Assembly: GCA_018434355.1 (NCBI GenBank)
Contig: JAHDPL010000020.1
Coordinates: 182,255 to 246,254, forward strand
Reading direction: 5' to 3'
DNA from: Sporomusaceae bacterium
GTDB lineage: Bacteria; Bacillota; Negativicutes; UBA1444
DNA length: 64,000 nt
The position numbers were made by a program, and so were the translations under genes. Numbering within the stretch: the stretch's first letter is position 1; every line of letters begins with the position of its first letter. A model generated the notes under the pieces. That model was given only the letters and a program-made list of their open reading frames with translations. It did no database searches and was not told the DNA's origin. This document shows positions 11,327 through 64,000 of this stretch, piece after piece.

Positions 11327-11839
11327 TCAGCCCTGGCCGTACTGCTGTTTAATCAACGGCTTGATGCCGCCACTGGCCAGGATATTCATCACATACTCGG
11401 ATAGCGGCTGCGCCTGCATGGTTTCGCCGCTACTCAGGTTCGTGACCGTCCCTGTCGTCATGTCCAGGCTCAGGCTATCGCCCCGTTTGACTTTTTGACC
11501 GATACCGGGGCAGACAAGCAGCGGCACGCCTAGATTGATCGCATTGCGGTAAAAAATCCGTCCATAGGAATCGGCCAGGATCGCGCCGACGCCGGCGGCC
11601 TTCAGCGTCACCGCGGCGTGTTCACGGCTGGAGCCGCAGCCAAAGTTGGTGGAGGCAACGATCAAATCGCCTGGCTGAACTTCTTTGACAAAGTTTGGGT
11701 CAGCGCCTTCCATCGCATGTTTACCGACTTGGTCCGGGTCAGTGAGGTCGAGAAACCGGCCGGGATAAATTTGATCGGTATCGATGTTCGCTCCGTAAAC
11801 AAAGGCTTTGCCTTTCAATATCTGTTGCACGCTTTTCAC
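11327..11839 (-). CDS. Aconitase-family dehydratase small subunit (LeuD-like), paralog 1
   Basis: 170 aa containing DTDQIYPGRFL and [12 protein letters not shown]. Its start overlaps the large-subunit stop by 4 nt (ATGA). Confidence 0.85.
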   Translation of the reverse strand: MKSVQQILKGKAFVYGANIDTDQIYPGRFLDLTDPDQVGKHAMEGADPNFVKEVQPGDLIVASTNFGCGSSREHAAVTLKAAGVGAILADSYGRIFYRNAINLGVPLLVCPGIGQKVKRGDSLSLDMTTGTVTNLSSGETMQAQPLSEYVMNILASGGIKPLIKQQYGQG

Positions 11840-13095
11840 CCCTGCTTCAAGTATTCTGTCGGGTCAACGATTTTACCGGTCAGCGCAGCGGCAGCGACCG
11901 CCGCCGGCGAACCCAGGTAGATTTCGGCTTTGGGCGAACCCATGCGGCCGGGGAAATTGCGGCTTGATGCGGTGATACAGGTCTCGCCTGCCGCCAGCAT
12001 CCCTTCGTGCGTCCCCAGACAGGCGGCGCAGCCTGGCGTGACAAAGGTCGCCCCCGCTTCCACCAGCGTCTTCATCGTGCCGTTCGCCATTGCTTCCAGC
12101 AGCACTGCTTTGGACGCCGGCACCACGATGAACCGGGTGCGCGGGTTTATTTTTTTTCCCTGCAGGATTTTGGCCGCAATCGCCAGATCTTCGGCGCGGC
12201 CGCCGGTGCAGGTGCCAAGGAAGGCCTGGTTGACGGGAATCCCTGCGTATCTGGCCACCGGCGCTACGTTGTCGACGCTGTGCGGCGCGGCGATTTGCGG
12301 CGTCATGCCGGTTACGTCAAACGTGTGCTCCGCCGCATATTGATAGCCTGGGTCCGTCGTGAAAATTTCATATTCATGCTGCACTTTTCCCTGCAAAAAC
12401 TGCAGCGTGATCTCGTCTGGCTGGATATAGGCGGTTTTGGCGCCCAGTTCGGTGGTCATGTTGCAGAGGGCCATCCGCTCGGAAACGCTGAGTTGTTTCA
12501 GCACCGGCCCGGTAAATTCGACCCCGCGATACACGCCGTAGTCCGCGCCCAACGCGCCGATGACCTTAAGGATGATGTCTTTGGCGTAAACGCCCTGCGG
12601 CAACGTTCCTTCGAGATGAATCCGGATAATCTCGGGAATCCGGAACCATAGCTGTCCTGTCACCATGATGATCGCCAGGTCGGTGGCGCCGACGCCGGTG
12701 CCGAACGCACCGAACGCACCGTGAATCGTGGTGTGCGAATCGGTGATGACCAGTACCTGGCCGGGATAGACCAACCCTTTGTCGACCATGACCTGGTGGC
12801 AGACGCCCTGATCGACGTCCATCAGCAAGTCGATTCCCTGCTCCCAGCAAAATTCGCGGAACTGCTTCTGGTTGTCGGCCTGCATGATCGTGGACGCCGG
12901 CGCGTAGTGGTCGAGAAAAACCACGATCTTGTTCGGGTCATGGACTTTCTTGCCGCCCATCTCAAAAAACGAGCGCAGCGTCTGCAGATACAAATCGTTG
13001 ATTCCGGCCATATCGACCTTGCAATTGACAATCTCACCGGTTGTCACCGCCGCTTTGCCGGCGGCTTTGGCTAAGATTTTCTCTATCGCGTGCAT
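11836..13095 (-). CDS. Aconitase-family dehydratase large subunit (LeuC-like, short ~420-aa type), paralog 1
   Basis: The true start is MHAIEKILAKAAG, preceded by an AGGAGGG RBS; the track's N-terminal extension is rejected. Contains the DSHT, CNM and GCAACLG Fe-S motifs. Confidence 0.85.
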   Translation of the reverse strand: MHAIEKILAKAAGKAAVTTGEIVNCKVDMAGINDLYLQTLRSFFEMGGKKVHDPNKIVVFLDHYAPASTIMQADNQKQFREFCWEQGIDLLMDVDQGVCHQVMVDKGLVYPGQVLVITDSHTTIHGAFGAFGTGVGATDLAIIMVTGQLWFRIPEIIRIHLEGTLPQGVYAKDIILKVIGALGADYGVYRGVEFTGPVLKQLSVSERMALCNMTTELGAKTAYIQPDEITLQFLQGKVQHEYEIFTTDPGYQYAAEHTFDVTGMTPQIAAPHSVDNVAPVARYAGIPVNQAFLGTCTGGRAEDLAIAAKILQGKKINPRTRFIVVPASKAVLLEAMANGTMKTLVEAGATFVTPGCAACLGTHEGMLAAGETCITASSRNFPGRMGSPKAEIYLGSPAAVAAAALTGKIVDPTEYLKQG

Positions 13096-13195
13096 AACAA
13101 GCATCCCTCCTGACTTTTTTCCTGATTGGGGCGGGCAGTTCCGTTTCCTTTCCTGTCTACTCACACCTCCCCGCTTAATGTTCAACCACTATCTA

Positions 13196-13211
13196 TGCAA
13201 AAACAATGCCA
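13196..13211 (-). promoter_or_regulatory. Sigma-54 (-24/-12) promoter for the LeuCD-like operon
   Basis: Minus strand reads TGGCAT-tgttt-TTGCA, against the consensus TGGCAC-N5-TTGCA. It lies about 100 nt upstream of the start codon at 13095, and a sigma-54 activator gene is divergent from it. Confidence 0.7.
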
Positions 13212-13242
13212 ATCGTCAAAATCGGCTATTTTCGCAATACTC

Positions 13243-13278
13243 CGCAAAATTTTTGTTGCATTGAAACAATTTTTGCGG
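13243..13278. promoter_or_regulatory. Inverted repeat ccgcaaaa-N20-ttttgcgg; candidate enhancer (UAS) for the adjacent sigma-54 activator
   Basis: 8-bp arms seen directly, about 30-70 bp upstream of the -24 element. Confidence 0.35.
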
Positions 13279-13322
13279 TATTTTTGTTTTATAATGTTTT
13301 ATTTTGTTTCAGGAGGTAGCCG

Positions 13323-15203
13323 ATGATTAGCTTTCTTGCCCCTGACGGAAAAATATTCGCCACTGCCAAAACTACCCTTGCCGCCTCGCACCCTGACATT
13401 CGGATCGAACAGGGACTGCTCAGCGCCGGGGTCGAAAAAGCTGGAGAGCTGATTGACGCCGGAACAGAAATCATCATCAGTCGCGGCGGCACCGCCAAGG
13501 CGATCAAAGACGCCTTTCCGGCGATTATCGTGGTCGAACTGCCGATTACCGGCTTTGACATTCTGCGCACCGTCGACCAGGCTCGCAGGCTTGGCGGACG
13601 GATTGGCGTTGTCGCCTTTGCTTCGATGGTTGCCGGCATCGACTGCCTGCCGTCAATTCTCGGCGTTGAGCTATGTCAGTATCCGATTGAAAACGAATTC
13701 GAAGCCGAAGCCAAAGTACTGCAGGCCCGCCGCGATGGCGCCGAAGTCATTATCGGCGGTGTCATCACCGGCCAAACCGCCCGCAAACACAATCTGCCGC
13801 ACGTATTGATCGAGAGCGGCGGCGAAGGAATCCTGCAGGCAGCGCTGGAATCGAAGCGGATTTATGCAGCCCGCCTGGCCGAGAAAGTAAAAAGCAGCCT
13901 GTTCCGCACCGTGCTCGACTATTCCTACGAAGGCGTCATATCGATCAATCAGGACCGCCAGGTCGTCATCTGCAATCCGGCGGCAAGCAACCTCAGCGGT
14001 CGCAAGCAGGCGGAAACGCTCGGTCAGCCGATTGACAAGGTGTTGCCGCGGTTAAAATTGGAGCGAGTTCTGGCAACCGGCCAGCAAGAGTTGGGCCAGA
14101 TCATCGAGCTCGGCGGCAGCCAAATCCTCTGCAACAAAATTCCGATTCTGGTCGGCGGTCGCATCGCCGGCGCGGTGGCCACCTTTCAAGAAACTGGTAA
14201 GATCCAGCAATGGGAGGCCGCCATCCGCAAAAAAATCTATGCCGGTGGTCACATCGCTTCGTTTCAGTTCAGCGACATCATCGGCGCCAGCCCGGCAATC
14301 CAGGAAGCGATCAGCATGGCCCGCGAATTTGCCATCACCGACGCATCGGTGCTGATTACCGGTGAAACCGGCGTTGGCAAGGAAGTTTTCGCGCAAAGCA
14401 TCCACAACGCTAGTCCGCGCGCGCCAAAACCGTTTGTGGCAATCAACTGTGCAGCCTTGCCTGCTCAGATCCTTGAAAGCGAGTTGTTTGGTTACATGGG
14501 CGGCGCCTTCACCGGCGCCAACCCTAAAGGGAAATCCGGTTTGCTTGAAATCGCCCATGGCGGCAGTTTGTTTCTAGACGAAATCGCTGAAATGGATTAT
14601 GGCATCCAAAGCAAACTGCTGCGGGTGATCCAGGAAAAACGGGTGATGCGGCTTGGCAGCGACCGGGTCCTGCCGGTAGATGTCCGAATTATCGCCGCCA
14701 CCAACAAGAATCTCAAAACCCTAATTCTCGAGCAGAAATTTCGCGCCGACCTGTATTATCGGCTAAACGTACTTCGGCTCAACCTGCCGCCGCTACGGGA
14801 ACGCCGGCAGGATATCCCGCTGTTCGCCCGCCACCTGCTGAGTCGCAATGAAAAAGCAGCTCACCGCAAACTGCACTGGGGACCGGACGCCCTGGAACGA
14901 CTTGTCCGGAACGAATGGCCAGGCAATGTACGGGAGCTGCAAAATATCGTGGAACGGATCGTGGCGGTCTGCAAGCAGGATTACATCTCTGCCGAATTGA
15001 TCAGTCGCGTGATGCGGGATGACGACGATAAACCGGAAACCTCTGCCGCTGCCTGGTCGCCTTTCGACGAACACGAAACGATCCGGCAGGCGCTGGACCA
15101 AACCCATGGCCGATTGGCGGCCGCAGCCGAGTTGCTTGGCGTCAGTCGTTCGACGTTGTGGCGAAAAATGAAAACCCTGGGACTCAGTCCGCGCCGCCGC
15201 TGA
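13323..15203 (+). CDS. Sigma-54-dependent transcriptional activator with a PrpR-type N-terminal sensor domain, a PAS domain, an AAA+ domain and a C-terminal HTH
   Basis: 626 aa. The N-terminal 200 aa resemble the propionate-regulator sensor domain. AAA+ sigma-54 interaction motifs are present (GETGVGKE, GAFTGA, ESELFGY), and the C-terminus carries an HTH (LLGVSRSTLWRKMK). Confidence 0.85.
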   Translation: MISFLAPDGKIFATAKTTLAASHPDIRIEQGLLSAGVEKAGELIDAGTEIIISRGGTAKAIKDAFPAIIVVELPITGFDILRTVDQARRLGGRIGVVAFASMVAGIDCLPSILGVELCQYPIENEFEAEAKVLQARRDGAEVIIGGVITGQTARKHNLPHVLIESGGEGILQAALESKRIYAARLAEKVKSSLFRTVLDYSYEGVISINQDRQVVICNPAASNLSGRKQAETLGQPIDKVLPRLKLERVLATGQQELGQIIELGGSQILCNKIPILVGGRIAGAVATFQETGKIQQWEAAIRKKIYAGGHIASFQFSDIIGASPAIQEAISMAREFAITDASVLITGETGVGKEVFAQSIHNASPRAPKPFVAINCAALPAQILESELFGYMGGAFTGANPKGKSGLLEIAHGGSLFLDEIAEMDYGIQSKLLRVIQEKRVMRLGSDRVLPVDVRIIAATNKNLKTLILEQKFRADLYYRLNVLRLNLPPLRERRQDIPLFARHLLSRNEKAAHRKLHWGPDALERLVRNEWPGNVRELQNIVERIVAVCKQDYISAELISRVMRDDDDKPETSAAAWSPFDEHETIRQALDQTHGRLAAAAELLGVSRSTLWRKMKTLGLSPRRR

Positions 15204-40615: not shown

Positions 40616-41887
40616 CTACCAGTTCAGTTCCATAGTCTTCTTCGCACCTGCGGTTGCGGCTTCCAGGGTTTCTACGATGCCCACACTGTCTTTCAGCTCA
40701 GTTCCCGTTCCAGTGAACGAGCCTGGGCGCAGGGCATTGATCAAACGAATTTTCAGCGGCGAAACGCCGAGTTTTTCAGCCAGGATATCCATCTGGCTTT
40801 CATGGGCGAATGCGACCTGCGGCACGCCAAAGCCGCGCATCGCGCCAGCCTGGGGATTGTTGGTATAGACGGTATAGGCGTCGACTTTCACGTTGGGGAC
40901 TTCATACGGCCCCATCACGTGAACTGCCGAGCGGGTCAAAGTACCTGGACCGTAGGAGGCGTAAGCGCCGGTGTCGCCGATGATGCTTGCTTCGAACGCC
41001 AGCAGTTTTCCATTGGCATCGCTGCCGCTCTTCAGTTTCATAATGAAGGGATGACGCTTTACACTGTTGGCAATCGACTCGTGCCGACTGTAAATCATTT
41101 TGACCGGACGCCGCGTCGCCACCGCCAACAAGCCTAGATGCACCTGAACCGAAACATCCAATTTGCCGCCGAAGCCGCCGCCGGTCGTCGCTTGGATCAC
41201 CCGGACCCGGTTAAGGCCGATGTTGAGATTGCGGGCGATTTCTTTCGCGTCATAATGGGGGTTTTGCGTACAGACCCAAACTGTGACAATATCGCCATCC
41301 AGCTTTGCCACGCCCGCTTCCGGCTCGATATAGGCATGTTCGGCCATTTGTGTCTGGTAGTCTTGTTCGACGATGACCGCACACTCGGCAAAGGCTTTTT
41401 CCACGTCGCCGCGGCGAATTTTTCGGACGGCCAGCACATTGCCTTTTTCATAGATTTTCGGCGCATCATCCTTCATCGCTGCGACCGGATCAAACACCGC
41501 CGGCAATTCATCCACCTTGACTTCGATCAAACGCAGAGCTTGTTCAGCAATTTCTTCGGTTTCCGCAGCGACCAGTGCAATCGGGTCACCGATTTTACGG
41601 ATTTTCTGACCATTTTTCACCAAGACCGGCTCATCTTTAATGATGATGCCGCTGCTGTTCGAACCGGGGATATCGTCGCCCGTCAATACGGAGACAACTC
41701 CAGGCAGCGCTTTTGCCTTGCCCGTGTCGACCGACAGCAGAACGCCGTGGGCAACCTTGCTGCGCAGTGTCTTGCCGTAAATCATGCCGGGGAACTGAAT
41801 GTCGGCAGCGTATTTTGCCACGCCGAGAACTTTTTCGACGGCATCCAGTTTTTGGACGGAATGGCCGATGACTTTGTAATCACTCAC
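40616..41887 (-). CDS. ndhL: Molybdenum-hydroxylase Mo-binding subunit, N-terminal half; candidate nicotinate dehydrogenase large subunit
   Basis: The start was re-placed at a GTG that overlaps the ndhS stop (GTGAGTGA), after a GGAGG RBS. The protein begins VSDYKVIGHSVQKLDAVEKVLG. Confidence 0.8.
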   Translation of the reverse strand: MSDYKVIGHSVQKLDAVEKVLGVAKYAADIQFPGMIYGKTLRSKVAHGVLLSVDTGKAKALPGVVSVLTGDDIPGSNSSGIIIKDEPVLVKNGQKIRKIGDPIALVAAETEEIAEQALRLIEVKVDELPAVFDPVAAMKDDAPKIYEKGNVLAVRKIRRGDVEKAFAECAVIVEQDYQTQMAEHAYIEPEAGVAKLDGDIVTVWVCTQNPHYDAKEIARNLNIGLNRVRVIQATTGGGFGGKLDVSVQVHLGLLAVATRRPVKMIYSRHESIANSVKRHPFIMKLKSGSDANGKLLAFEASIIGDTGAYASYGPGTLTRSAVHVMGPYEVPNVKVDAYTVYTNNPQAGAMRGFGVPQVAFAHESQMDILAEKLGVSPLKIRLINALRPGSFTGTGTELKDSVGIVETLEAATAGAKKTMELNW

Positions 41888-42353
41888 GGTCTTCACCTCC
41901 ACCTTGGCAGGCCACTTTTTCAATGGCGTTGACGATTTTGGTATAACCGGTGCAACGGCAGAGATTGCCGGAAATATGCCGGGAAATTTCTTCGCGTTTT
42001 GGATGCGGATTGACATCCAGCAACGATTTGGCGCTGAGCAACATTCCTGGCGTACAAAAGCCGCACTGTACCGCTCCCTCGGCGATAAACGCCTCTTGCA
42101 GCGGATGCAGTTTGTCATAGTCGCCAAGTCCTTCAACGGTTACGATATCATGCCCGTCGGCTTTTACCGCCAACATCAGGCAGGAATTCACATTTTTCCC
42201 GTCGACCAAAACGGTGCAGGCGCCACAGTCTCCTTCGCCGCAACCGACTTTGGTTCCTGTCAGTCCCAGCCGTTCCCGCAGCAAATCGACAAATAGCAAC
42301 TCCGGCTCGACTTCCAGTTCAATCGGTTTACCATTCAAAACAAATTTAATCAT
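41880..42353 (-). CDS. ndhS: [2Fe-2S] small subunit of the molybdenum hydroxylase
   Basis: The true start is MIKFVLNGKPIELEV. Contains CGEGDCGACTV and CGFCTPG ... CRCTGY motifs. Confidence 0.85.
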   Translation of the reverse strand: MIKFVLNGKPIELEVEPELLFVDLLRERLGLTGTKVGCGEGDCGACTVLVDGKNVNSCLMLAVKADGHDIVTVEGLGDYDKLHPLQEAFIAEGAVQCGFCTPGMLLSAKSLLDVNPHPKREEISRHISGNLCRCTGYTKIVNAIEKVACQGGGEDRE

Positions 42354-42357
42354 TCGT

Positions 42358-43230
42358 TTACTCACAAACGCACACCTCCATAGCCTGCTTCGTCGCCGCT
42401 TCCAAACACCGCTGCACAGTAACTCGCGCCAATTTTCCCCGGTGCGTTGCAGTACAACGGACGTCATCAATCGGTCGGACGCTTTGTTCGGCTTGCAACC
42501 CGGCTTCGGCAAACACTGCCGGTTCCGGTTTGCGACCGACCAACCACTTTTCTGTCTCGTACAGACGAACCGGCGTCGGACCGACCGATCCCAAAGCAAT
42601 GCGCGCTGCAGTAATTACGCCGCCCTGCACGCGTACCCAGGCCGCTCCATTGACAATCGAGCAGGCCAGCGCCTTGCGTTTGCCAAATTTGGCGAATGCC
42701 GCGCCTTCCCCTGCAGCAACCGGCGAAACATGGATTCCGGCGATATATTGGCCCGATTTTAGGCAAGTCCTGCCAGGTCCGACAAAAACTTTATCCAAAG
42801 GCAGATTTTCTGAGCCATTCGCGCTATTTAGCTGTACTTTTGCGTCAAGCGCCAACAATGCCGGTACAGTATCGGCCGCCGGCGAAGCATTGCCGATATT
42901 GCCGCCTACGGTTCCTGCATTGCGGATTTGCGGCGATCCCACTTCCGAAGCCGCCAGGCAGAGCGCGGCTGTTTTTTTGTTCATCACAGGCGAATCCATC
43001 AATTCCCTGTGCGTGACCAGCGGCCCGATCCAAAGAGAGCCGGCTGTTTCGCGAATCCCCTTGAGACTTTCAATCCCGCTGACGTCGACCAAATTGCGCG
43101 GAGAAATCAACTTCTCCTTCATCTTGACCATGACGTCGGTCCCGCCCGCCAAAAGGCAGTAGTCTTCCATCCCGTTCAAAAGAGCCGCCAATTCAGTTTC
43201 GCTTTTGGGACTGTGGTAATTGAACTGCAT
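42358..43230 (-). CDS. ndhF: FAD-binding subunit (CoxM/XdhB-like) of the molybdenum hydroxylase
   Basis: The true start is MQFNYHSPKS. Contains the FAD motif LLAGGTDVMV and AGTVGGNIGNASP. Confidence 0.85.
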   Translation of the reverse strand: MQFNYHSPKSETELAALLNGMEDYCLLAGGTDVMVKMKEKLISPRNLVDVSGIESLKGIRETAGSLWIGPLVTHRELMDSPVMNKKTAALCLAASEVGSPQIRNAGTVGGNIGNASPAADTVPALLALDAKVQLNSANGSENLPLDKVFVGPGRTCLKSGQYIAGIHVSPVAAGEGAAFAKFGKRKALACSIVNGAAWVRVQGGVITAARIALGSVGPTPVRLYETEKWLVGRKPEPAVFAEAGLQAEQSVRPIDDVRCTATHRGKLARVTVQRCLEAATKQAMEVCVCE

Positions 43231-43297
43231 TTTGTCACCCCACAACTACTTTTTTTGTTTTTACTGTTTTGTCCATTTTGACTCGTTCTGTTAATAT

Positions 43298-43313
43298 TGC
43301 AAATAGCGTGCCA
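43298..43313 (-). promoter_or_regulatory. Sigma-54 promoter (perfect -24/-12 consensus) for the nicotinate-fermentation operon
   Basis: Minus strand reads TGGCAC-gctat-TTGCA, about 70 nt upstream of the ndhF start. Confidence 0.8.
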
Positions 43314-43330
43314 ATCGGGTCATCACATCA

Positions 43331-43359
43331 ATGTCCGAAAAAAAATAACGCCCGGACAT
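43331..43359. promoter_or_regulatory. Inverted repeat atgtccg-N15-cggacat about 20-60 bp upstream of the -24 element; candidate activator or IHF-region site
   Basis: Seen directly. The spacer is A-rich. Confidence 0.3.
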
Positions 43360-43555
43360 GTTTCAAACATAGCCCAGACGCCTTTGTCTTTAAGCGTTTC
43401 TTCAATTTCCGCCCCGATGTAATTTTGTGGTTGTTGTCATTATAAAACAGTTTTTCGCAAAGCTCAAGAGGGACGGCTTTAAAAGCAACAAGGCCATTCC
43501 ATTTCATTTTTGCAATGTTTTACCACTACATCGACTGGCATGCAGTAAAATCAAG

Positions 43556-43613
43556 TCCGACCGAACATTTCAATTTTGCAACAGCAATTTCAAAATTGAA
43601 ATGCTCGGTCGGA
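43556..43613 (-). terminator. Long 22-bp-arm inverted repeat (one mismatch) immediately downstream of the sigma-54 activator gene. Either a terminator hairpin or a large palindromic operator
   Basis: Sequence tccgaccgaacatttcaatttt-N14-aaaattgaaatgctcggtcgga. The minus sense continues CUUGAUUUUACUG. Each arm contains TTGCAA-like cores. Confidence 0.45.
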
Positions 43614-43633
43614 TGCGGAAAAATATTTTTGTT

Positions 43634-45214
43634 CTAGGACGATTCCAGGCCCATTTCCACCATTTTTCGCCACAAAGTCGTTGTACTGATTCCCAACAGG
43701 CGAGCTGTTTCCTGCCGCGATCCGCCGCTAGCTTTGAGCGCCCGCAAAACACAGTCGCGCTCAGTTGCCCGCACCGCCTCAGCCAGTGACAAAATCGTTT
43801 GTTTCGCTCCGGCCCCGCCATGACCGGCTTGCAAGTACTGCGGCAAATGCTCGATTTCGATGCAATTTTCATTGATACTGATCACATTCATCGCATACTC
43901 AATGCAGTTTTGCAGTTCCCGCACATTGCCTGGCCAGTTATGCAACTGAAAGCGTTTTCGGCACTCGCCCGAGACGCCCATGACAAACTTGCCCAGCAGC
44001 TTATTGTAACGATTGACAAACACGCGGATAAAATCCGGGATATCATCGAGTCGGTCGCGCAGCGGCGGCACTTTGATCTGCACAACATTGAGCCGGTAGT
44101 AAAGGTCTTCACGAAACTTGCCATTGCGGACCATATCCAGCAAATCACGATTGGTCGAGGCAATCACCCGGACATCGACCTGAATCGGCTTCGACCCACC
44201 GATACGGGTCACTTCGCGTTCCTGCAACACCCGCAGCAATTTGCTTTGCAATGTGAAATCCGTTTCTCCTAGTTCATCGAGAAAGATCGTTCCGCCATCG
44301 GCTTGTTCAAACGCGCCGGGATTGCCGCTTTTTTTCGCGCCGGTGAACGCGCCCTCATCATAACCGAATAGATAGCTCTCGATAATAGTTGCGGGAATCG
44401 CACCGCAATTAATCGCAACAAACGGCTTGCTGGCCCGGTCACTGGCGTTGTGGATGCTTTGGGCGAAAAGCTCCTTGCCGGTTCCAGTCTCGCCGGTGAT
44501 CAGTACGGACGAAACGCCCTTGGAAACATAGGAAGCCATATTGCTGACTTTTTTTATCGCCTCGCTGCTACCGACAATATCAGAAAAGCTGTAACGGGCG
44601 TACTGGAACTTTTTGAACTCCTCAATCAGTTTCTGCTGGCGCTGGACGCCGTGAAGGTTGTTGAAGCCAAAACCAAAGCGCTTGGTGATTGGAATCCTAA
44701 CCGCCACTGCGCCGATATCGGACATTGACTGGCCGATAACCGGTCGTTGCGTTTGCATCGCTTCCCTCGCCGCCACGCTGACTTTGCCAATGAATTTGTT
44801 TTCTTCGCCGGTCGGGTCATAGCTAGCTAAACGCTGGCCTTCCGCATCAAAAATGACCGCTTCGCCGCCGGCCACCCTGGCAATGAACGGCAATGCCTGT
44901 TTCAAAGATTCCTGTAGCTGATCGTCCCGCAACACCCGTTCCAAATTGCTGGCCGACAATACATAGTCGCCAATCGGTAAACTCCACGCTTCGGCGCTTT
45001 CAACAATTTGCGAAGGACCCGCCGTCAAAGTCCCGCTCTCAGAAGCCTGCCGGGCCAAGTCAAATACCAGCCCCTTCAATTCGGCGATCTCTTCCCCTTC
45101 GGAATCAACTGTTTTGATCCTTACACCGCAGCGGTCGGTTAGCGTCGCGTAGCCGCCGGTGATGCGGGCAATAATTGGCAATGCCTCCAGCAGCATCCGG
45201 GTCGAATTGTCCAT
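43634..45214 (-). CDS. Sigma-54-dependent transcriptional activator with a novel ~200-aa N-terminal sensor domain; candidate nic-cluster regulator
   Basis: 526 aa with AAA+ motifs [14 protein letters not shown] and ESYLFGY, and a C-terminal [16 protein letters not shown]. Immediately upstream of the sigma-54 promoter of ndhF. Confidence 0.85.
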
Positions 45215-55358: not shown

Positions 55359-56951
55359 TTATCTTTTACGCAACACCCGTCCGGCTAGTGCGCCGGTTTC
55401 CCGGCCCTGGCTAACTGCCGCCACGCCATTCACAAACACGTACTCAATGCCTGAAGGATGCCTACACGGATCAATAAACGAATTGCCTTCCTGAATATTG
55501 GCGGCGTCAAACAATACCAAATCCGCTTTCGCACCGAGCGCAATCCGGCCGCGATCCCTCAGACCAAGCCTACGGACTGGACGACCGGTCATCCGTTCAA
55601 CAGCTTGCTCTAGTGTCAGCAATTTTTCTTCACGCACATAGCGAGACAAAATCCGCGCCGTCGAGGCATAGGCCCGTGGGTGCGGTTTGCCAATCAGGAG
55701 TCCATCGGTGCCGAGCATGCCGCGTGAATGCTTGATGATTTCGGCAACATCCGCCTCAGACATGCTGAAGTTCACCATCGAAACCTGCAGATTCTCTTGC
55801 AGCAGTAAATCGAACACGACTTCCTGCGGCGAAATTTTCCACTCATCAGCGATTGCGGTCAGTGACTTGCCTTCGCAGGCCTTGTTCGGGCCGCCGGGGA
55901 TGCCGGTTACGATCACGCCGTCCCAGCCGGCGGCGGTCGCGATATTTTCCCAGCCAGGCAGACCCTGCCTCATTTCTGCCGCCAGACGCTCGCGCATCGC
56001 CGGGTCGCGCAGGCGCTCCAGCAATTTTTCCGATCCACCGGCATGTGCATGTGGCGGCACCAGAATACTCAACATCGTACTGCCGGCAGGATAAGGATAT
56101 TGGTCGAAGGAAGCGTCCAGCCCCTCGTCAATTGCCATATCAAACAACTTCAACATCCGGCCCGCCGTACCCCAGTTTTCCTTGCCAATTACTTTCAGGT
56201 GGGAAATATGCGGGATCACGCCGGTTTTTCGCGCCAGATCAAAAATTTCACCGATCGATTCGACGACCAGACCGCGTTCGTTGCGCACATGCACGACAAA
56301 AAGTCCTTGGTTGCGGGCGCTGACCGAGGTCAACGCGACCAGTTCGTCAGACGCGGCAAAAATACAGGGAGGGTAAATCAATCCTGTAGAAAGGCCGAAC
56401 GCCCCCTGATCGTAACTCTGCTGCAATAAATCGCACATCCGGGCCAACTCCGCTGATGTCAGAGCACGTTCTTCCATTCCAGCTACGGCAATCCGCAGCG
56501 GTCCATGGCTGACCAACGCCGCCAGATTCGTCGCCGTACCGTCGCGCTGCAAACGGTCCAGATACTCACTAAAACTGCGCCAGGTCCAAGCCAGGTCGGG
56601 ATCGCCCAACAGACCCGACACATGCCGTCGGTAAGAGTCGATATGCCCATCGGTCAGCGGCGCTAACCCCAGACCGTCCTGTCCCAGCAATTCGGTCGTG
56701 ATACCTTGGCAAATCTTTGCGGCGGCCTGCGGTTTGACCATCTGCAACAAATCGGAATGACTGTGCATATCGATAAAACCCGGCGTCAACGTCAAACCCC
56801 GGGCATCGATCACCCGGGAAAAACTGCCGGTTTCCGCTGGAATCCGGCCAATTTCGCTGATCAGACAATCATTAACCGCCACATCGGCAACAAACGCTTT
56901 TTTACCTGTTCCATCAACAATCGAAGCCCCCTGGATCAGTAGACCGCTCAT
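55359..56951 (-). CDS. N-acyl-D-amino-acid deacylase (D-aminoacylase) family amidohydrolase
   Basis: 530 aa. Contains the HxH motif region PGFIDMHSHSD and has the Amidohydro_3 architecture. Confidence 0.8.
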   Translation of the reverse strand: MSGLLIQGASIVDGTGKKAFVADVAVNDCLISEIGRIPAETGSFSRVIDARGLTLTPGFIDMHSHSDLLQMVKPQAAAKICQGITTELLGQDGLGLAPLTDGHIDSYRRHVSGLLGDPDLAWTWRSFSEYLDRLQRDGTATNLAALVSHGPLRIAVAGMEERALTSAELARMCDLLQQSYDQGAFGLSTGLIYPPCIFAASDELVALTSVSARNQGLFVVHVRNERGLVVESIGEIFDLARKTGVIPHISHLKVIGKENWGTAGRMLKLFDMAIDEGLDASFDQYPYPAGSTMLSILVPPHAHAGGSEKLLERLRDPAMRERLAAEMRQGLPGWENIATAAGWDGVIVTGIPGGPNKACEGKSLTAIADEWKISPQEVVFDLLLQENLQVSMVNFSMSEADVAEIIKHSRGMLGTDGLLIGKPHPRAYASTARILSRYVREEKLLTLEQAVERMTGRPVRRLGLRDRGRIALGAKADLVLFDAANIQEGNSFIDPCRHPSGIEYVFVNGVAAVSQGRETGALAGRVLRKR

Positions 56952-58201
56952 CGCAAACCTCCCAGCGCCGCTTTCACCGCAGCTAGGGTCGGTTCGACAA
57001 AGTTGGGCGAGCCGGCGGCCTTCACCGCGGACTGAATATCTTTCAGGCCATTTCCGGTAACTAGTAGCGCCACTGTTTCATTGCCGCCAAGTATCCCCTG
57101 TGCCACCGCTTTGCGGATGCCAGCCACACCGGCCACACCGGCCGGTTCGCCAAATACGGCCGCTTTGCGGGCCAGCGTCGTGATTGAAACAAGAATTTCC
57201 GCATCCGGCACGCTGATAAACGCCCCGCCGGACTCGACAATTGCCTTCATGCCTTTTTGGAAATTTCGCGGATGACCGACGGCAATCGAATCGGCGATCG
57301 TGTTATCCTCGGTCGGCTCTAGCGGCGCACCGGTTTTCCAGGCAGTCAAAAAAGGCTGGCATCCCTCGGCCTGCACGCCGAGAATTTTCGGCAACCGCGG
57401 CAGGAAGCCGAGCTTGTGCATCTCGACCAACCCTTTCCAGACGCCGCCCACTGTGCAACCGTCGCCGACCGACACCACGACCCAGTCGGGACAGACTCCG
57501 CCGTATTGGCCGCGCAGTTGGTCAACCAACTCCAGCGAGACCGTTTTCTTCCCTTCGATCAAATAGGGATTGATTGCACAATTCCGGTTGTACCAGCCAA
57601 ATTCCGCTGCCGCTTCCATACACAGCTCCCATGCCTGATCATAAGTCCCCTTCACGGCAAAAACCCGGGCGCCAAATACCAGTAGTTGGGCTACCTTGGC
57701 CTGCGGGGCTCGTTCCGGCACAAAAATCGTCGCCGGCAATCCAGCCGCGGCCGAAAATCCAGCCAAAGACGAAGCTGCGTTACCGGTAGACGCGCAGGTG
57801 ATGCTGTTGGCGCCTTTTTCCAGCGCTTTGATTACTCCGAGCGAACTGGCCCGATCTTTAAATGAAGCCGTCGGGTTACGGCCTTCATCTTTGACAAACA
57901 AGCGAGCCACACCTAATTCGTCCGCAAGTCGCGCCGCATCGTACAGCGGCGTCCAGCCGACCTGCAGATGCTGTATTTTTGTTGTATCCTCGATCGGCAA
58001 TAACGGGAGATAGCGCCACATCGAAAAGGTGCGGCTGCCGGACAGCGCAGCCGGGTTGAACACTGTGGCCAAGGCTGCATAGTCGTATTCGACATCCAAA
58101 ATCCCGTCTTCGTAGCCGCAGGCAGGACAATAATAATCCACTTCCGTCACCGCATACTGCCGGTCGCAATGAATGCAGCGCAAGCCTGTCACATAACTCA
58201 A
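56948..58201 (-). CDS. Threonine-synthase-like fold-II PLP enzyme with an N-terminal zinc ribbon
   Basis: Zinc ribbon CIHC-x17-CPAC, followed by a ThrC-like core with the PLP-Lys motif (ASFKDRASS). Overlaps the downstream gene by 4 nt. Confidence 0.7.
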   Translation of the reverse strand: MSYVTGLRCIHCDRQYAVTEVDYYCPACGYEDGILDVEYDYAALATVFNPAALSGSRTFSMWRYLPLLPIEDTTKIQHLQVGWTPLYDAARLADELGVARLFVKDEGRNPTASFKDRASSLGVIKALEKGANSITCASTGNAASSLAGFSAAAGLPATIFVPERAPQAKVAQLLVFGARVFAVKGTYDQAWELCMEAAAEFGWYNRNCAINPYLIEGKKTVSLELVDQLRGQYGGVCPDWVVVSVGDGCTVGGVWKGLVEMHKLGFLPRLPKILGVQAEGCQPFLTAWKTGAPLEPTEDNTIADSIAVGHPRNFQKGMKAIVESGGAFISVPDAEILVSITTLARKAAVFGEPAGVAGVAGIRKAVAQGILGGNETVALLVTGNGLKDIQSAVKAAGSPNFVEPTLAAVKAALGGLR

Positions 58202-58217
58202 CCTGCCACCCCTTTTC

Positions 58218-58949
58218 TTAGTGCCGAATTCGTTTCAGAAATTGTTGGGTCCGTTCCTGCGACGGAGTTTCAAAAATATCCGCCGGGGTACCCTCTTCCA
58301 CAATTACGCCGCCATCCATGAAAATGACGCGGTCGGCCACATCTTTGGCAAACGCCATTTCATGGGTTACGACGACCATCGTCATGCCTTCGGTCGCCAA
58401 ATCTTTCATCACGACCAGTACTTCCCCCACCAACTCCGGGTCCAGAGCCGAGGTTGGTTCGTCAAACAGCAAAATCTTCGGATTCATCGCTAGCGCCCGG
58501 GCGATTGCCACCCGTTGCTGTTGCCCACCGGACAGTTCGCGCGGATAACTGTCTCTTTTATCCGCCAGCCCGACCCGGGTCAATAATTCTTCTCCTATTG
58601 TTTCGGCATCCGCCCTTGACATTCCTTTTACCACCAGCGGCGCTTCGACAATGTTTTCCAACGCCGTTTTGTGGGGAAACAGATTGAACCGCTGAAACAC
58701 CATGCCGATATGAGTTCGCAAGTCGCATAGATCGGTCTGTTCATCGACTTTCTTGCCTTCAAAAAAAATCTCGCCGGACTGGATCGGCTCCAGTTTGTTG
58801 ATACAACGCAGCACAGTGCTTTTACCCGAGCCACTTGGGCCGATGATGACGACTTTCTCACCTTCCAGCAACTGTATGTTGAAATCTTTCAGCACTTCCA
58901 CCGGACCGAATGATTTATAGACGTTCTTCATTTCTACAATATAGTTCAT
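58218..58949 (-). CDS. Polar-amino-acid ABC transporter ATP-binding protein
   Basis: Walker [10 protein letters not shown], the signature [15 protein letters not shown], and Walker [13 protein letters not shown]. Confidence 0.9.
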
Positions 58950-59599
58950 TGTCGCGCCATCTTCCTTTCCAGTCTGTCTGCGATGACCATAAACACCGAG
59001 TTCATGATCAGGTACAGCACCGCTACTGCCGTGTAGACTTCAAAACTGCGGAATGTCGTATAGATGATCTGCTCACCGGTACGGAACAATTCGGTAATCG
59101 TCACCAGCGAAGCGATCGAAGAATTTTTCAACGTCATGATAAATTGATTTACCAGCGGCGGAATACAGATTTTTGTCGCCTGCGGACCGATAATCCGCAC
59201 CATTGCCTGTCGAAAACTCATTCCCACCGACAACGCCGCTTCCATCTGTCCTTTGTCAACTGCCTGGATTCCGGCCCGGATGATTTCGGTAACATAAGCG
59301 CCGGTATTGATTGCCAAGCCCAGTACGCCGGCCACCATGCTCGGCAATTTGATGCCCAGCTGCGGCAGGCCAAAGTAGAGAATAAATAGTTGCACCATCA
59401 CCGGTGTTCCCCGGATGACCCACACATACATAAAAGCGATTGAATTCAGCGCCCGGTTGGAAGAAATTCGGCACAGCGCACCCGCTATGCCGAAGATCAT
59501 TCCCAACAACAGGGCGAAGAAGGAGATTTGAAGGGTGACCACGCACCCTTCAAGCAATATCGGAATCTTCGTCAATACAACTGAAAAGTCGAGATTCAT
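58946..59599 (-). CDS. Polar-amino-acid ABC transporter permease (HisM/GlnP type)
   Basis: 217 aa, five TM segments and an EAA-like loop. Overlaps the ATPase gene by 4 nt. Confidence 0.85.
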
Positions 59600-59623
59600 C
59601 AGCGTTCCCTCTTCCCCAAAACC

Positions 59624-60454
59624 TTATTTCGTTCCGATCAACCATTTCTTATACATTTTCTCCGCTTCGCCGGATTGTTTCAATTCTTTCAGCACAGCAT
59701 TCGTCAGGTCGAGCAGTTCCTTGTCGCCTTTTTTCACGGCGATTCCCAGTTGGGCTTTAGTGAACGGTTCGCCGACAATTTTCACATTCGGGTTGGCTTT
59801 GTTGTATTCCAACTGATTGAGCAAGTCATTGATCGCGGCGTCCAGACGACCATTTTGCAAGTCGAGCAAATAATCAACGGTTTCTTTATAGCTCTTGATT
59901 TCGATCTTGGCGCCTTTTTCTTTCATTTCCTGGGCTACTTTTTCGCTGGTGGCGCCGGTTTTTACACCGACCACTTTTCCGTCGAGGTCCTTGGTGCTTT
60001 TGATCGTGGTGTTATCTTTGCGGACCGCCAACACCATACCGGTATCCATATAGGGGTCGGCAAAGTCTACAACCTCTTTACGAGCCGGGGTGATATACAT
60101 CGCAGCGATCACCAGGTCGGCTTGGCCGTTTTGCAGCGTCGGAATCAGCCCAGTGAACTGCATTTCCTTAATTTCCAGCGGCACGCCGATTTTTTTTGCG
60201 ATGGCTTCGGCGACATCAATATCATAGCCGATGATTTTGTTGGTTTTTTCGTCGTGATATTCAAACGGGCGATAGTTGCCGGTCGCAAGAATTAGTTTGC
60301 CATTTTTCTTGATCTGGTCGATTCGGCTAACCGCCGCCGGTTTGGTCTCGGGTTTTGCTTCCGGTTTGGCCGGAGCGCTGCCGCAACCGGCGGCAACTAG
60401 GGCGAGCATTAACAGGGCGAGCAGCAGAGTCAGGTTTTTTTTCAGCATTTTCAT
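59624..60454 (-). CDS. Amino-acid ABC transporter substrate-binding lipoprotein
   Basis: Start at MKMLKKNLTLLLALLMLALVAAGCGS (lipobox). SBP_bac_3-like. RBS aaagaggga. Confidence 0.8.
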   Translation of the reverse strand: MKMLKKNLTLLLALLMLALVAAGCGSAPAKPEAKPETKPAAVSRIDQIKKNGKLILATGNYRPFEYHDEKTNKIIGYDIDVAEAIAKKIGVPLEIKEMQFTGLIPTLQNGQADLVIAAMYITPARKEVVDFADPYMDTGMVLAVRKDNTTIKSTKDLDGKVVGVKTGATSEKVAQEMKEKGAKIEIKSYKETVDYLLDLQNGRLDAAINDLLNQLEYNKANPNVKIVGEPFTKAQLGIAVKKGDKELLDLTNAVLKELKQSGEAEKMYKKWLIGTK

Positions 60455-60480
60455 TACAATCCCTCTTTCATTTATTTTTA

Positions 60481-60522
60481 TATAACAAAAAAGAGCCCAC
60501 GCATCGTGTGATGCATAGGCTC
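60481..60522 (-). terminator. Intrinsic terminator after the CdsB-like gene
   Basis: Two-tier GC stem gagcc-GCATC-gtgt-GATGC-ggctc, followed in the minus sense by UUUUUUGUU. Confidence 0.65.
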
Positions 60523-60650
60523 CATTGCCATCCGAAGACTGTTCGGGCAAAATCGCTGATATTATATTGCTGTTCTAGACCAAATTGTCTTGTATGGATG
60601 AAAATTTACCACATTCAACAGCAAAAAGCAAGCCGCTTTCCAAAAACTGT

Positions 60651-61952
60651 TCATGATACGGCTGGCGTTTTACTCTTTTCCAACATGATTTCCAGAATCA
60701 CTTTGTCGGTTTCAAGCATGCCCGGGCTGCTTACCATTCCCAAATTACGGATTGAATCATCCGTTGACTGAAAGATAATCCCGTTGCTGTCCGGTACCAG
60801 GACATTTTTCAGCGTCAACAGGGCCGTTTCAACCGCCACGCCGGCCGCTGTAGACAATTTCAGCGCACAGCCAACTTTGCCGCCATCGCAGATCATGCCG
60901 GTCAGATTGGCAATCATGTTTTTAATCGTTCCATCAATCTGTTCGCGACTGCCGCCCAGCATCCAGACAATGGCCGCACTCGCCCCGGTTGCCGCCGCCA
61001 CTGCGCAACCGCATAAGGCGGACAGGCTGCCGGTATAAGTTTTGATGTAAAGCGTCGTCAACGCGCTGATTGCCAGCGCCCGGTGCAACTTTTCCTGCGG
61101 CACGTTCAGTCGTTCCGCCACCGCCACTACCGGCAATATCGCAGTCAGACCATGGTTGCCGCTGCCGGCTACGCTCATCACCGGAACATTTTCGCCTGAC
61201 ATTCTCGCATCCGCCGCTGCTGCGGTGAGGATTTTCGCATACAACACCAGGTCGTCGGTGAGGATCTTTTCATTGATCATATCCTGAAAGTTTGCGCCGA
61301 TCGCCATGCCCAGACGCCCGTTCAACCCCGCCTGCGCTGCCGCCCGATTCATCCGGATGCTCTCGGCAAAAAAGGAAAACTCCTCGTCTGGCATTTCTTC
61401 CACCGCCGCAATTATTCCCGCTAGCGTAACTTCGGCGTTATTCATGATTGCCACGCTTTTTGCCGCGGCAGCAGCCGCTTTGCAGGAAAGGGTCTTTCCA
61501 TCACGCTCCAGCAGGATCAGATTGGTATGGCTACCATCAATTACTGCGCGGGCCGAGCTTGTGACACCGCTGACCTTGACCTCGATATGCAGTCCCTGAT
61601 GATCGTTCAATCGAATGTCGACCTTATCCCCGGCCAGCATCGTATCGGCCATCGTCAGCAATTCCGGCGTAATCCTGCTGAGCACCGACAATTCCAGCGC
61701 CGGTTCCTTGATCAGTGATCCCAAAGCAGCCGCAATCGCCAACCCGACCTTGCCGGTACCGGGAATGCCCACGGCAACTCCATTTTTATAAACGTTAGAA
61801 TCCACAGAGACTTCGACTTTTGTCGGAATCTCAGTCCCTAACGCCTGTCCGGCATAAGCAGCCGCCAGCGCTACAGCTCCTGGTTCAGTGCAACCAAGCG
61901 CCGGCTTGACCCCGGCCTGAATCAACGTAATCACTTCATCACGAAATTTCAT
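60651..61952 (-). CDS. YhaM/CdsB-family (UPF0597) Fe-S L-cysteine-desulfidase-like protein
   Basis: Start at MKFRDEVITLIQAGVKPALGCTEPGAVAL after an AGGAGG RBS. Contains the conserved SVAGSGNHGLTAILP motif. Confidence 0.8.
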   Translation of the reverse strand: MKFRDEVITLIQAGVKPALGCTEPGAVALAAAYAGQALGTEIPTKVEVSVDSNVYKNGVAVGIPGTGKVGLAIAAALGSLIKEPALELSVLSRITPELLTMADTMLAGDKVDIRLNDHQGLHIEVKVSGVTSSARAVIDGSHTNLILLERDGKTLSCKAAAAAAKSVAIMNNAEVTLAGIIAAVEEMPDEEFSFFAESIRMNRAAAQAGLNGRLGMAIGANFQDMINEKILTDDLVLYAKILTAAAADARMSGENVPVMSVAGSGNHGLTAILPVVAVAERLNVPQEKLHRALAISALTTLYIKTYTGSLSALCGCAVAAATGASAAIVWMLGGSREQIDGTIKNMIANLTGMICDGGKVGCALKLSTAAGVAVETALLTLKNVLVPDSNGIIFQSTDDSIRNLGMVSSPGMLETDKVILEIMLEKSKTPAVS

Positions 61953-61991
61953 GTTTTTTCCTCCTGACATGCATACTACATTCTATGCTTT

Positions 61992-62007
61992 TGCAAGATG
62001 CATGCCA
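61992..62007 (-). promoter_or_regulatory. Sigma-54 promoter for the CdsB-like gene
   Basis: Minus strand reads TGGCAT-gcatc-TTGCA, about 40 nt upstream of the start codon. Confidence 0.7.
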
Positions 62008-62056
62008 AAAAAAAGCGGTTGATTCGCTACAAATCAATCGCTTTTTCGTCACAATT

Positions 62057-62130
62057 TCTCATTTTGATTCAGTTGCTTTCTTGTAGTATCGCCAACAGGC
62101 CTAAAAATTAACTATTCTCATTTTGATTCA
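62057..62130. repeat. Two identical 15-mers tctcattttgattca 59 bp apart, plus a third partial copy at 62134-62144. Candidate enhancer sites
   Basis: Direct repeats about 60 and 120 bp upstream of the sigma-54 promoter. The distal copies overlap the last codons of the activator gene. Confidence 0.45.
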
Positions 62131-63950
62131 TCATTCTCATTTTGAGACGAATCAATTGAAATTTTATACTGCTTCAATTTCCGGTACAAAGTTGCCTTGC
62201 TGATTCCCAGCGCCTTAGTCAGTTGGGCTTTGCCGCGCATGCTCAGGCCAAATGTTTCGATTGCGTTCAAGATTGCGTTCTTTTCCAGTTCGGCGATCGT
62301 GAGCAGGCGATTCGGTTGCGCCTCAACCGCCGAACCCGGTCGCGCGGGTTTGCCGGCTATCATTATCCGCGGCGGGATGTGCCGCTGCTCAATAATTTTA
62401 CTGTCCGCAATACTGACCAGATATTCAATTGTATTCTCCAATTCGCGAATATTGCCGGGCCAGTCGTACTCCAGCAGACAAGCGTAAGCTCCGGAATCGA
62501 TGCTCTCGACGTTCTTCGCCATTTTTTCGCGATAACGTGCCAAAAAACGGTCGATCAACAAAGGCAGATCCTGCCGACGATCACGCAGGGCAGGAATCTG
62601 CAATGGAAAAACATTGATCCGATAGTACAGGTCCTGGCGAAACTCACCCTGGCGAACCATCGCCTCGATATCCTTGTGCGTAGCCGCGATAATCCGCACA
62701 TCAATTTCCGTGGTTTGCGTACTACCAACTCTTTCGATCCGTCTTTCCTGCAACACGCGCAAAAGTTTAGCCTGCAATGTCAGCGACATGTCGCCAATTT
62801 CATCAAGAAAGACCGTTCCGCCATCAGCCAGTTCAAATTTTCCGGGTTTGCCGCCGCGTCTGGCGCCGGTAAACGCCCCTTCTTCATAGCCAAACAATTC
62901 GCTTTCCAGCAAGGCTTCGGGAATCGCCGCGCAATTGATTGCAATGATCGGTTTTTCCCGCCTGGCGCTGGCATTGTGAATCGCACGGGCGAACAGCTCC
63001 TTGCCTGTTCCGCTTTCACCCAGTATCAGCACTGTCACGCTGCCGGTCGCCGCCTGCGTAGCTTCCTGTTTCGCCCTGGCCAAAGCAGGGCTTTCGCCAA
63101 GAATCATCTCAAAACTGAAGCAGTGTTCCTGGGTAGACAGATTGGAAACTATTTTTTTTACTTCGGCCATTTCCCGCAAAGTTACGACAGCACCCAAAAC
63201 TTCCGTCCCGCCCAACCAGGTTTTAACGGTTGCTACATAATAAACGCGCTGCCCCCGGATCAAGCGGAACGCTTCCCGATTAAAAACATCATGGCCGGTT
63301 GACAGACTGTCCGCCAACGGCAAGCCGGAAAGCAGAGCAGCCAATTCCTTGCCCATCACCGACTTCTGCGCAACTTGCAACATTTTCGCTGCCGCTGCGT
63401 TGATATTGACGATTCGTCCGTTACGATCTACTGCGACAATTCCTTCCTGCACCGTATCAAACAAGGTCGTCAGTTGCTGCTGGATGGCATGCAGTTGTTC
63501 CAGCCGTTCTCGCCCGGCGATCTTGCCGGCCAACAAATCCGCCATTCGCTGCAAAAAATCAAATAATCCCTCAGGGTTCGCCAAGAGAATCCGATATTGC
63601 GTCTCATCGCAGGCAATCAGAGCAATCACGCCGATCACCTGGCCGTCCAGCATGATCGGGCAACAGACCTCGGCCCGCTCCTCACAGCTTTGTTTGCCTT
63701 CGCAGGTATTGCAGACCTGATGTTCGCGCGGATTCGCAATGATAAATCCGCGGCCTTCCCGCAACACTGCAGCAAAAGCCGAGTCCTTCACCAGGCGGTC
63801 ACCAATTTTTCCCGCATAACGCCCGGTTCCGGCAATGCGATGCAAGCGTTCATCGGCAATCGTCACTTCCACCGTCAGAACACTGGCAATCGCTTCTGCC
63901 ACTTGCTGCACATCGAGTTGGTTCTTGTTCAGAAAGGTATCCTGCAACAT
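62118..63950 (-). CDS. Sigma-54-dependent activator with N-terminal GAF and PAS sensor domains (Fis-family HTH)
   Basis: 610 aa. The sensor has a Cys cluster ([19 protein letters not shown]). AAA+ motifs [14 protein letters not shown] and ESELFGY are present, and the C-terminus carries an HTH ([13 protein letters not shown]). Confidence 0.85.
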
Positions 63951-64000
63951 GGTTTCCCTTATGCTCCCTTGTTAAAAAATCACGAGTCAGGCTTTTTCCA

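Follow-up and report, generated by a model that had tools for sequence, protein, structure and literature searches.

The DNA at the junction of two genes in a 64-kb stretch of a Sporomusaceae genome (contig JAHDPL010000020.1; the whole stretch is hereafter called the window) very probably constitutes an enhancer–promoter module of the CdsR/cdsB type, in which a sigma-54 activator adjoins cdsB, the gene for an L-cysteine desulfidase. This assignment is based on the identity of the binding motif with that of Clostridioides difficile and on its conservation in orthologous loci; the CdsR/cdsB system itself is not novel, both the motif and the module having already been published (PMC5767170, PMC6615313). 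All genes of the region lie on the minus strand, and its features, in the direction of transcription, are the following.

62118..63950, minus strand: cdsR-like sigma-54 activator gene (610 aa; open reading frame (ORF) ending in ...SQNENDESK*)
62135..62147, minus strand: predicted upstream activating sequence (UAS) site A, TCTCAAAATGAGA, a perfect 5+5 dyad centred at about −160
62116..62128, minus strand: predicted UAS site B, AATCAAAATGAGA, centred at about −141 and holding the last codons and stop of the activator gene
62057..62069, minus strand: predicted UAS site C, AATCAAAATGAGA, centred at about −82, intergenic
62007..62046, minus strand: probable intrinsic terminator of the activator gene (15-nt arms, 7-nt loop, U8)
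61992..62007, minus strand: sigma-54 promoter, TGGCATGCATCTTGCA, with −24 GG and −12 GC; predicted start near 61981
60651..61952, minus strand: cdsB-like gene (433 aa; SDH_alpha family, L-cysteine desulfidase homolog)
60482..60523, minus strand: terminator-like hairpin 3' of cdsB (14 pairs at 60523..60492, then TTTTTGTT)

The UAS sites are predictions, and their centres were measured from the predicted cdsB start (~61981), which was derived from the −12 element only and lies 12 nt downstream of its GC.

A probable enhancer of three conserved dyads before a sigma-54 promoter

The activator has the Sigma54_activat domain, the GAFTGA loop and the C-terminal helix-turn-helix (HTH) of a bacterial enhancer-binding protein (bEBP). 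Its architecture consists of a GAF/SpoVT_C-like domain, a PAS domain, an AAA+ domain carrying GAFTGA, an AAA lid and a Fis-type HTH, and the Pfam matches comprise Sigma54_activat (PF00158, 1.4e-73), AAA_lid_14, PAS, GAF_2 and HTH_50/HTH_8, the last two covering residues 552-598. The promoter TGGCATGCATCTTGCA, read from 62007 to 61992 on the minus strand, matches TGGCAY-N5-TTGCW exactly; the window holds three such matches, when 0.26 are expected, and the TGGC and TGCA of this promoter are invariant across eight orthologous loci. The first-pass annotation had thus correctly placed a sigma-54 promoter, TGGCAT-N5-TTGCA, about 40 nt before the CdsB-like start, the −12 element lying about 41 nt upstream of the ATG at 61952. 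Between the activator stop and the promoter there are 110 nt.

Upstream of the promoter, the same annotation had noted a 15-mer occurring twice exactly, 59 bp apart. On the plus strand, TTCTCATTTTGATTCA is indeed found at 62056-62071 and 62115-62130 with this spacing, the identity spanning 16 nt, and the positions given for the two copies, −60 and −120, hold if counted from the upstream edge of the promoter. A third, partial copy, TTCTCATTTTGA(GACG), is present at 62134-62149, although its distance from the second is 19 bp from start to start and not the 18 bp originally stated. Elsewhere in the 64 kb there is no copy with two or fewer mismatches, and the degenerate core WMTCAWWWTGAKA occurs only at the three sites (0.07 expected; none of 100 shuffles reached this count). 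A match to the 15-mer with three mismatches at 13297-13311, near another sigma-54 promoter, is without the TCA...TGAGA core and was taken as a chance occurrence. The unit of the enhancer is a 13-bp imperfect dyad, TCTCA-W3-TGAGA, with the consensus T[CA]TCA-W3-TGA[GT]A: site A is a perfect palindrome, TCTCA-AAA-TGAGA, around a 3-bp A/T spacer, and the left half is weaker in sites B and C. Such a dyad is the usual type of site for a dimeric Fis-type HTH.

Activator relatives in the protein database form a graded series from 92% to 62% identity, and their loci were compared. The main comparison comprised eight orthologous loci with 63-100% activator identity, a ninth being L116 (62%); P0107/L086 (74%) was excluded as a probable chimera. 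A cdsB homolog lies downstream of the activator in all nine orthologous loci, L086 being the exception among the fetched loci. The L086 protein is a 601-aa relative, near-identical to the window activator over the first 275 residues shown, but its C-terminal region is unrelated and its gene is not followed by cdsB; the gene lies on a low-coverage 3-kb contig and is either a recombinant or an assembly chimera.

In the eight orthologs, sites with at most two mismatches from the dyad are centred at −159 to −163, −140 to −143 and −82 to −85 from the predicted start, with the exception of site C of L090 (AATCATTTTGATA), which has three mismatches at the same alignment position, so that site C lies within two mismatches in seven of the eight. 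When the eight loci are aligned, the 39 site columns have a mean identity of 87-97% and 26 of them are invariant (10/13 in site A, 8/13 in site B and 8/13 in site C), against a mean of 64% and 11 invariant among the other 99 columns from site A to the promoter. The spacing is 19-20 bp (A–B) and 58-59 bp (B–C) across the nine loci, and L116 keeps the 19/59 spacing with the sites 8 bp closer to the promoter. In L116 (3779-3870), all three right halves read TGCGA, not TGAGA, with no change in the ATLYRK stretch of the HTH. Lineages differ from one another in the left half and in the central triplet (AAA, AAT, ATT, TTT or TTC), whereas the TCA...TGAGA core is constant; the 15-mer identity of the two copies is therefore a feature of the clade of the window overlaid on a dyad operator. 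The orthologous conservation by which the first-pass annotation proposed to judge the repeats is accordingly found for the three dyads and their spacing, but not for the 15-mer itself, which is clade-specific.

The same type of element is known from C. difficile. Gu et al. (2018; PMC5767170) described cdsR upstream of cdsB and found that cdsR and sigL are both required for the cysteine induction of cdsB; they reported two inverted repeats at −179 to −190 and −200 to −211, and the stretch from −153 to −223, with both repeats, was necessary in deletion reporter fusions. Nie et al. (2019; PMC6615313, Table S3) list the C. difficile CdsR UAS as CGTCTCAAAATGATATAGAATCTCATTTTGAGACT, entered as CdsR2, together with related CdsR1 sites in Clostridium scatologenes (...TCATTTTGAGAAA), and we located the published UAS in the C. 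difficile locus (L115) at 4427-4461. Over residues 13-597, the window activator shares 43% identity with C. difficile CdsR (P0172; E 2e-165), the match including the cysteine cluster of the sensor and the HTH stretch ATLYRK, and the cdsB-like protein is 45% identical to C. difficile CdsB over its full length (433 aa). The two systems (CD630_32330/CD630_32320 in strain 630) are alike in gene order (activator, sigma-54 promoter, cdsB), in the GAF–PAS sensor architecture with its cysteine cluster and in the closely spaced copies of the core TCTCA-W3-TGA[GT]A. They differ in that C. difficile has two sites, 21 bp apart at about −184 and −205 and 150 bp past the cdsR stop, whereas the window has three (−160, −141 and −82), of which two fall in the final codons of the activator gene, and its hairpin stands apart from them, by the −24 element. 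The hosts also differ, that of the window being Negativicutes-like (its closest named relative is a Negativicutes metagenome-assembled genome) and belonging to a group outside the Clostridiales survey. Three dyads, at −162, −141 and −120, are also present in a further cdsR-cdsB locus, that of Peptostreptococcus russellii (L002). The conserved islands at fixed distances from the promoter, and their equivalence to the published CdsR UAS, argue for the earlier proposal that the repeats are the enhancer of the adjacent GAF–PAS activator.

We propose that dimers of the CdsR-like protein most likely bind the three 13-bp dyads through the C-terminal Fis-type HTH, as motif identity and conservation suggest, and that three dimers would, by analogy with bEBPs in general, give the six subunits of the active AAA+ ring. 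The cysteine-rich GAF–PAS sensor would detect cysteine or a derivative of it, as C. difficile genetics indicates; DNA looping over 80-160 bp would bring the ring to the sigma-54 RNA polymerase at TGGCAT-N5-TTGCA, and ATP hydrolysis would open the promoter for transcription of cdsB. Transcription of the activator gene crosses sites A, B and C and most likely stops at the hairpin and U8 that abut the −24 element.

Several observations weigh against this reading in whole or in part. The sites are not at the C. difficile positions (~−184 and −205), and the site at −82 is closer to the promoter than most UAS. The spacings of 19 bp (A–B) and 59 bp (B–C) are not integral numbers of helical turns, and because of this we can only infer that three dimers make up one hexamer. 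A sigma-70-like sequence, TTGGCA-17-TAGAAT, lies over the promoter, though its −10 varies in relatives. The stem of the proposed terminator is rich in AT and contains a mismatch, a simple terminator scan missed the hairpin, and L087-L089 have at best a weak counterpart of it.

The hairpin, the gene overlap and other readings of the repeats

Between the promoter and the repeats, the first-pass annotation had pointed out a TTGATT-N7-AATCAA palindrome. It is present at 62019-62037, where it forms the inner stem of a larger structure with full arms at 62010-62024 and 62032-62046 that are 93% complementary. For the RNA from 62052 to 62000, the fold is a hairpin of 17 pairs with a single mismatch inside the stem (−19.3 kcal/mol, z −3.8; none of 200 shuffles as good); the hairpin starts 72 nt past the activator stop, and the U8 after it runs into the −24 element. 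From this fold we consider that the hairpin and U8 probably serve as the intrinsic terminator of the activator gene. A stem with a U run behind it occupies the same position in L083 (modified, −12.0 kcal/mol) and in L090 (of unrelated sequence, −16.1 kcal/mol), and in L116 site C is itself part of a hairpin with a T run.

It is unlikely, in our view, that the palindrome is instead a protein site, bound by a repressor, by a protein that bends DNA or by one more activator dimer. Its location at about −45, where IHF-like (integration host factor) sites are found in proteobacterial sigma-54 promoters, would suit such a role, and GAATCAA also occurs inside UAS sites B and C. The TTGATT/AATCAA letters, however, are kept only in the 90-92% relatives, are degraded at 86% (L085) and are absent in L087-L090, so that the palindrome does not stand as a conserved protein site. 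The extension of the arms to 15 nt, the T8 that follows and the RNA fold also speak against a protein site, as do the unrelated or modified stems with a U run in L090 and L083 and the fact that, in both L116 and C. difficile, a hairpin with a T run downstream of the activator gene is formed from a UAS site. In the C. difficile locus (L115, 4427-4469), the two CdsR UAS repeats are complementary to each other and pair into a hairpin of 12 bp (−14.8 kcal/mol, z −3.4) with T8 behind it; the experimentally defined UAS of this species could thus also be the cdsR terminator.

The second and third copies of the repeat lie inside the last codons of the activator gene, as the first-pass annotation had it, and the stop TGA (62120..62118) falls inside the second. 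In the clade of the window, site A encodes S-Q-N-E and the stop codon is the TGA of site B, whereas in L087-L090 the gene ends at the TGA of site A, which is entered in another frame and read as (V)-S-K-stop. In L085, sites A and C are changed only in the central spacer, and in site A this replaces the amino acid N with I. Because the frame and stop at site A differ by lineage and the L085 spacer change alters a residue, the C-terminal tail is whatever the enhancer happens to encode; as far as these alignments tell, the constraint is on the DNA and not on the C-terminal peptide. L103, a relative at 41% identity whose motif has a 4-bp spacer, likewise takes its stop from a dyad TGA, and in L116, P. 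russellii and C. difficile the sites lie beyond the activator stop.

The overlap of enhancer and coding sequence is most simply an incidental by-product, because the TGA of the motif supplies the first in-frame stop for any frame that enters the site. In 9 of 12 cdsR-cdsB loci compared, the stop codon lies on a dyad TGA, in two different sites and frames and once in the 4-bp-spacer variant, and one might suppose from this that the coincidence is not accidental and that a CdsR oligomer sitting on the end of its own gene, along with the terminator that separates enhancer from promoter, feeds back on cdsR transcription or termination. If true, this would amount to autoregulation coupled to cdsB activation. 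We regard it as improbable, and the common ancestry of the eight closest loci in the count tells against it.

The sigma-70-like sequence (61980-62008), which overlaps the sigma-54 promoter and agrees with the consensus at 10 of 12 positions, raises the question of whether cdsB is driven from there (62008..61980), with the repeats acting as repressor operators. We find this very hard to sustain: the −10-like hexamer is not kept, reading TAGCAG in L083 and CATAGG in L085 and being unrelated in L087-L090, whereas the GG and GC of the sigma-54 promoter are invariant; moreover, a bEBP gene adjoins cdsB in every locus, and the homologous C. difficile promoter is SigL-dependent.

An equally small chance attaches to the original view of the repeats as true head-to-tail direct repeats forming a non-dyad enhancer, a type said to be unusual for bEBPs. 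In the window, copies B and C share 16 identical nt and point the same way, and the central AAA is common to all three sites, which is what had suggested it. Each unit, however, has an internal dyad, site A being the perfect palindrome TCTCA-N3-TGAGA, and the spacings of 19 and 59 bp are unlike those of tandem half-sites, so that the array does not resemble a tandem direct-repeat operator of the OmpR/PhoB type. In relatives, the extra flanking identity vanishes and the central triplet becomes TTT, ATT or AAT, whereas the TCA...TGAGA cores persist; the two C. difficile sites have their central A/T tracts in opposite orientation, and Gu et al. (PMC5767170) call them inverted repeats. Finally, the idea that the repeats arose when the 3' end of the activator gene was duplicated locally, as a historical accident with no regulatory role, could draw on the two exact 16-nt copies 59 bp apart, one of them at the gene end, but is scarcely credible given that the sequence around the copies is dissimilar, that the three short sites keep their distances in loci with only 62-68% activator identity and diverged spacers, and that Peptostreptococcaceae also carry the motif, there clear of the activator gene.

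The transcription unit, its surroundings and related systems

The CdsR-like enhancer and its promoter would serve a short transcription unit. The cdsB-like protein matches SDH_alpha (PF03313, 2.3e-57). Its ATG at 61952, with AGGAGG before it at 61965..61960, is most likely the true start, and the gene is called at 433 aa in relatives as well. Because of the hairpin after cdsB and the unrelated downstream genes in the more distant loci (the genes 3' of cdsB differ among L087, L088 and L090), the sigma-54 unit probably comprises no gene other than cdsB, in line with the published regulon. That hairpin (60482-60523) is a strong one and separates cdsB from SBP_bac_3/ABC transporter genes; the ABC transporter and a gene for a ThrC-like pyridoxal phosphate (PLP) enzyme (56948..58201) are probably units separate from the sigma-54 unit. 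A search of positions 56000-64000 against Rfam gave no match at E values up to 1, and hence no known riboswitch or leader.

In the sensor (63662-63713), five cysteines, C80, C83, C89, C96 and C97, form a C-x2-C-x5-C-x6-CC cluster that is invariant in 9 of 9 aligned relatives and also occurs in C. difficile CdsR. The cluster may act in cysteine or sulfide sensing, as a metal, Fe-S or thiol-sensing site. On the other side of the activator gene (L081, the source contig of the window, 1-2945, mostly beyond position 64000), the neighbours are kept in L082-L085 and encode an adenine-deaminase-like amidohydrolase, a rhodanese and a cupin; L081 and L085 also encode a 252-aa protein that belongs to no family. 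The rhodanese suggests a wider sulfur-related neighbourhood.

Two other sigma-54 modules are present in the window. One (11327-15203) has the exact promoter TGGCATTGTTTTTGCA at 13211..13196 on the minus strand, which drives genes for the large (11836..13185) and small (11327..11839) subunits of an aconitase-family enzyme, and a divergent activator gene on the plus strand (13323..15203) with the domain order PrpR_N-PAS-AAA+-HTH_8. The other (40616-45214) consists of an AAA+/HTH_8 activator gene (43634..45214, minus strand) followed by the exact promoter TGGCACGCTATTTGCA (43313..43298, minus strand) and by genes for a molybdenum hydroxylase FAD-binding subunit (42358..43245) and a molybdenum cofactor (MoCo)-binding subunit (40616..42136). 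The enhancer of this module could consist of the inverted repeats near 43560-43610, which resemble TTTCAATTTTGAAA.

Multiple dyads about 80-160 bp upstream of a −24/−12 promoter are familiar from NtrC at glnAp2 and from NifA (TGT-N10-ACA), where dimers bind and assemble into an AAA+ hexamer. Compared with these enhancers, the window has another half-site sequence and a 3-bp spacer, no IHF site is evident, and the looping region, unlike theirs, contains a terminator-like hairpin flanked by A5 and T8 tracts. In E. coli and Salmonella, the cysteine-responsive regulator CyuR (DecR/YbaO) controls cyuPA and with it the anaerobic cysteine desulfidase CyuA/YhaM, a CdsB homolog; CyuR is an Lrp/AsnC-type regulator acting at a sigma-70 promoter. 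A homologous desulfidase is thus under cysteine control there too, but by a mechanism unrelated to that of the window. CyuA is also mentioned in PMC5767170.

The CdsR1 group (C. scatologenes, C. botulinum and C. sporogenes; PMC6615313, Table S3), which we liken to the window by its sites and gene context alone, also has a sigma-54 activator adjoining cdsB. The C. scatologenes sites ATTGTCATTTTGAGAAA and ATTCCTATTTTGAGAAA have the core TCA-TTT-TGAGAA in common with the window sites, whereas the CdsR1 sites of C. botulinum and C. sporogenes are TTTGCA-N-TGCAAA-like; the distances from the start codon in this group are larger (−161 to −304).

Scans of contigs extended the comparison to the wider activator family. 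A genome-contig scan with the whole activator was dominated by the generic AAA+ peptide FLDEIGDM; it yielded no close relative, and its sole cdsR-cdsB locus was that of P. russellii. The C. difficile locus L050 proved to encode a different enhancer-binding protein. A metagenome-contig scan with the sensor-domain alignment gave mostly paralogous activators about 42% identical and with no cdsB downstream; only L092, L103 and L111 bore cdsB, and no usable promoter or sites were seen in L111. The ~42% paralogs L095, L100, L102 and L097/L098 have the same cysteine-rich sensor and are not followed by cdsB. Just past the activator stop in L095, L100 and L102, a lone TCTCA-N4-TGAGA dyad and a promoter-like element, CGGCAT-N5-TTGTA, precede an ORF beginning MLR(N/D)ALPK, and in L097/L098 TATCA-N3-TGATA dyads precede a different ORF. 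The dyad type seems to be common to the wider activator family.

What the probable module means for the CdsR family

For annotation, the gain is that the activator can be named CdsR-like and that its enhancer can be marked to the base; given the terminator behind cdsB, the activator most likely has cdsB as its only target. The locus challenges no current idea, and the overlap of enhancer and gene is a small curiosity in which selection on the DNA would override the C-terminal peptide. The fixed three-site geometry (19-20 and 58-59 bp) offers a ready mutagenesis design for a Gram-positive sigma-54 enhancer. With this very probable module, the CdsR motif, reported for Clostridium and Clostridioides only (Nie et al. 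2019; PMC6615313, Table 1), now extends to a Negativicutes-like lineage.

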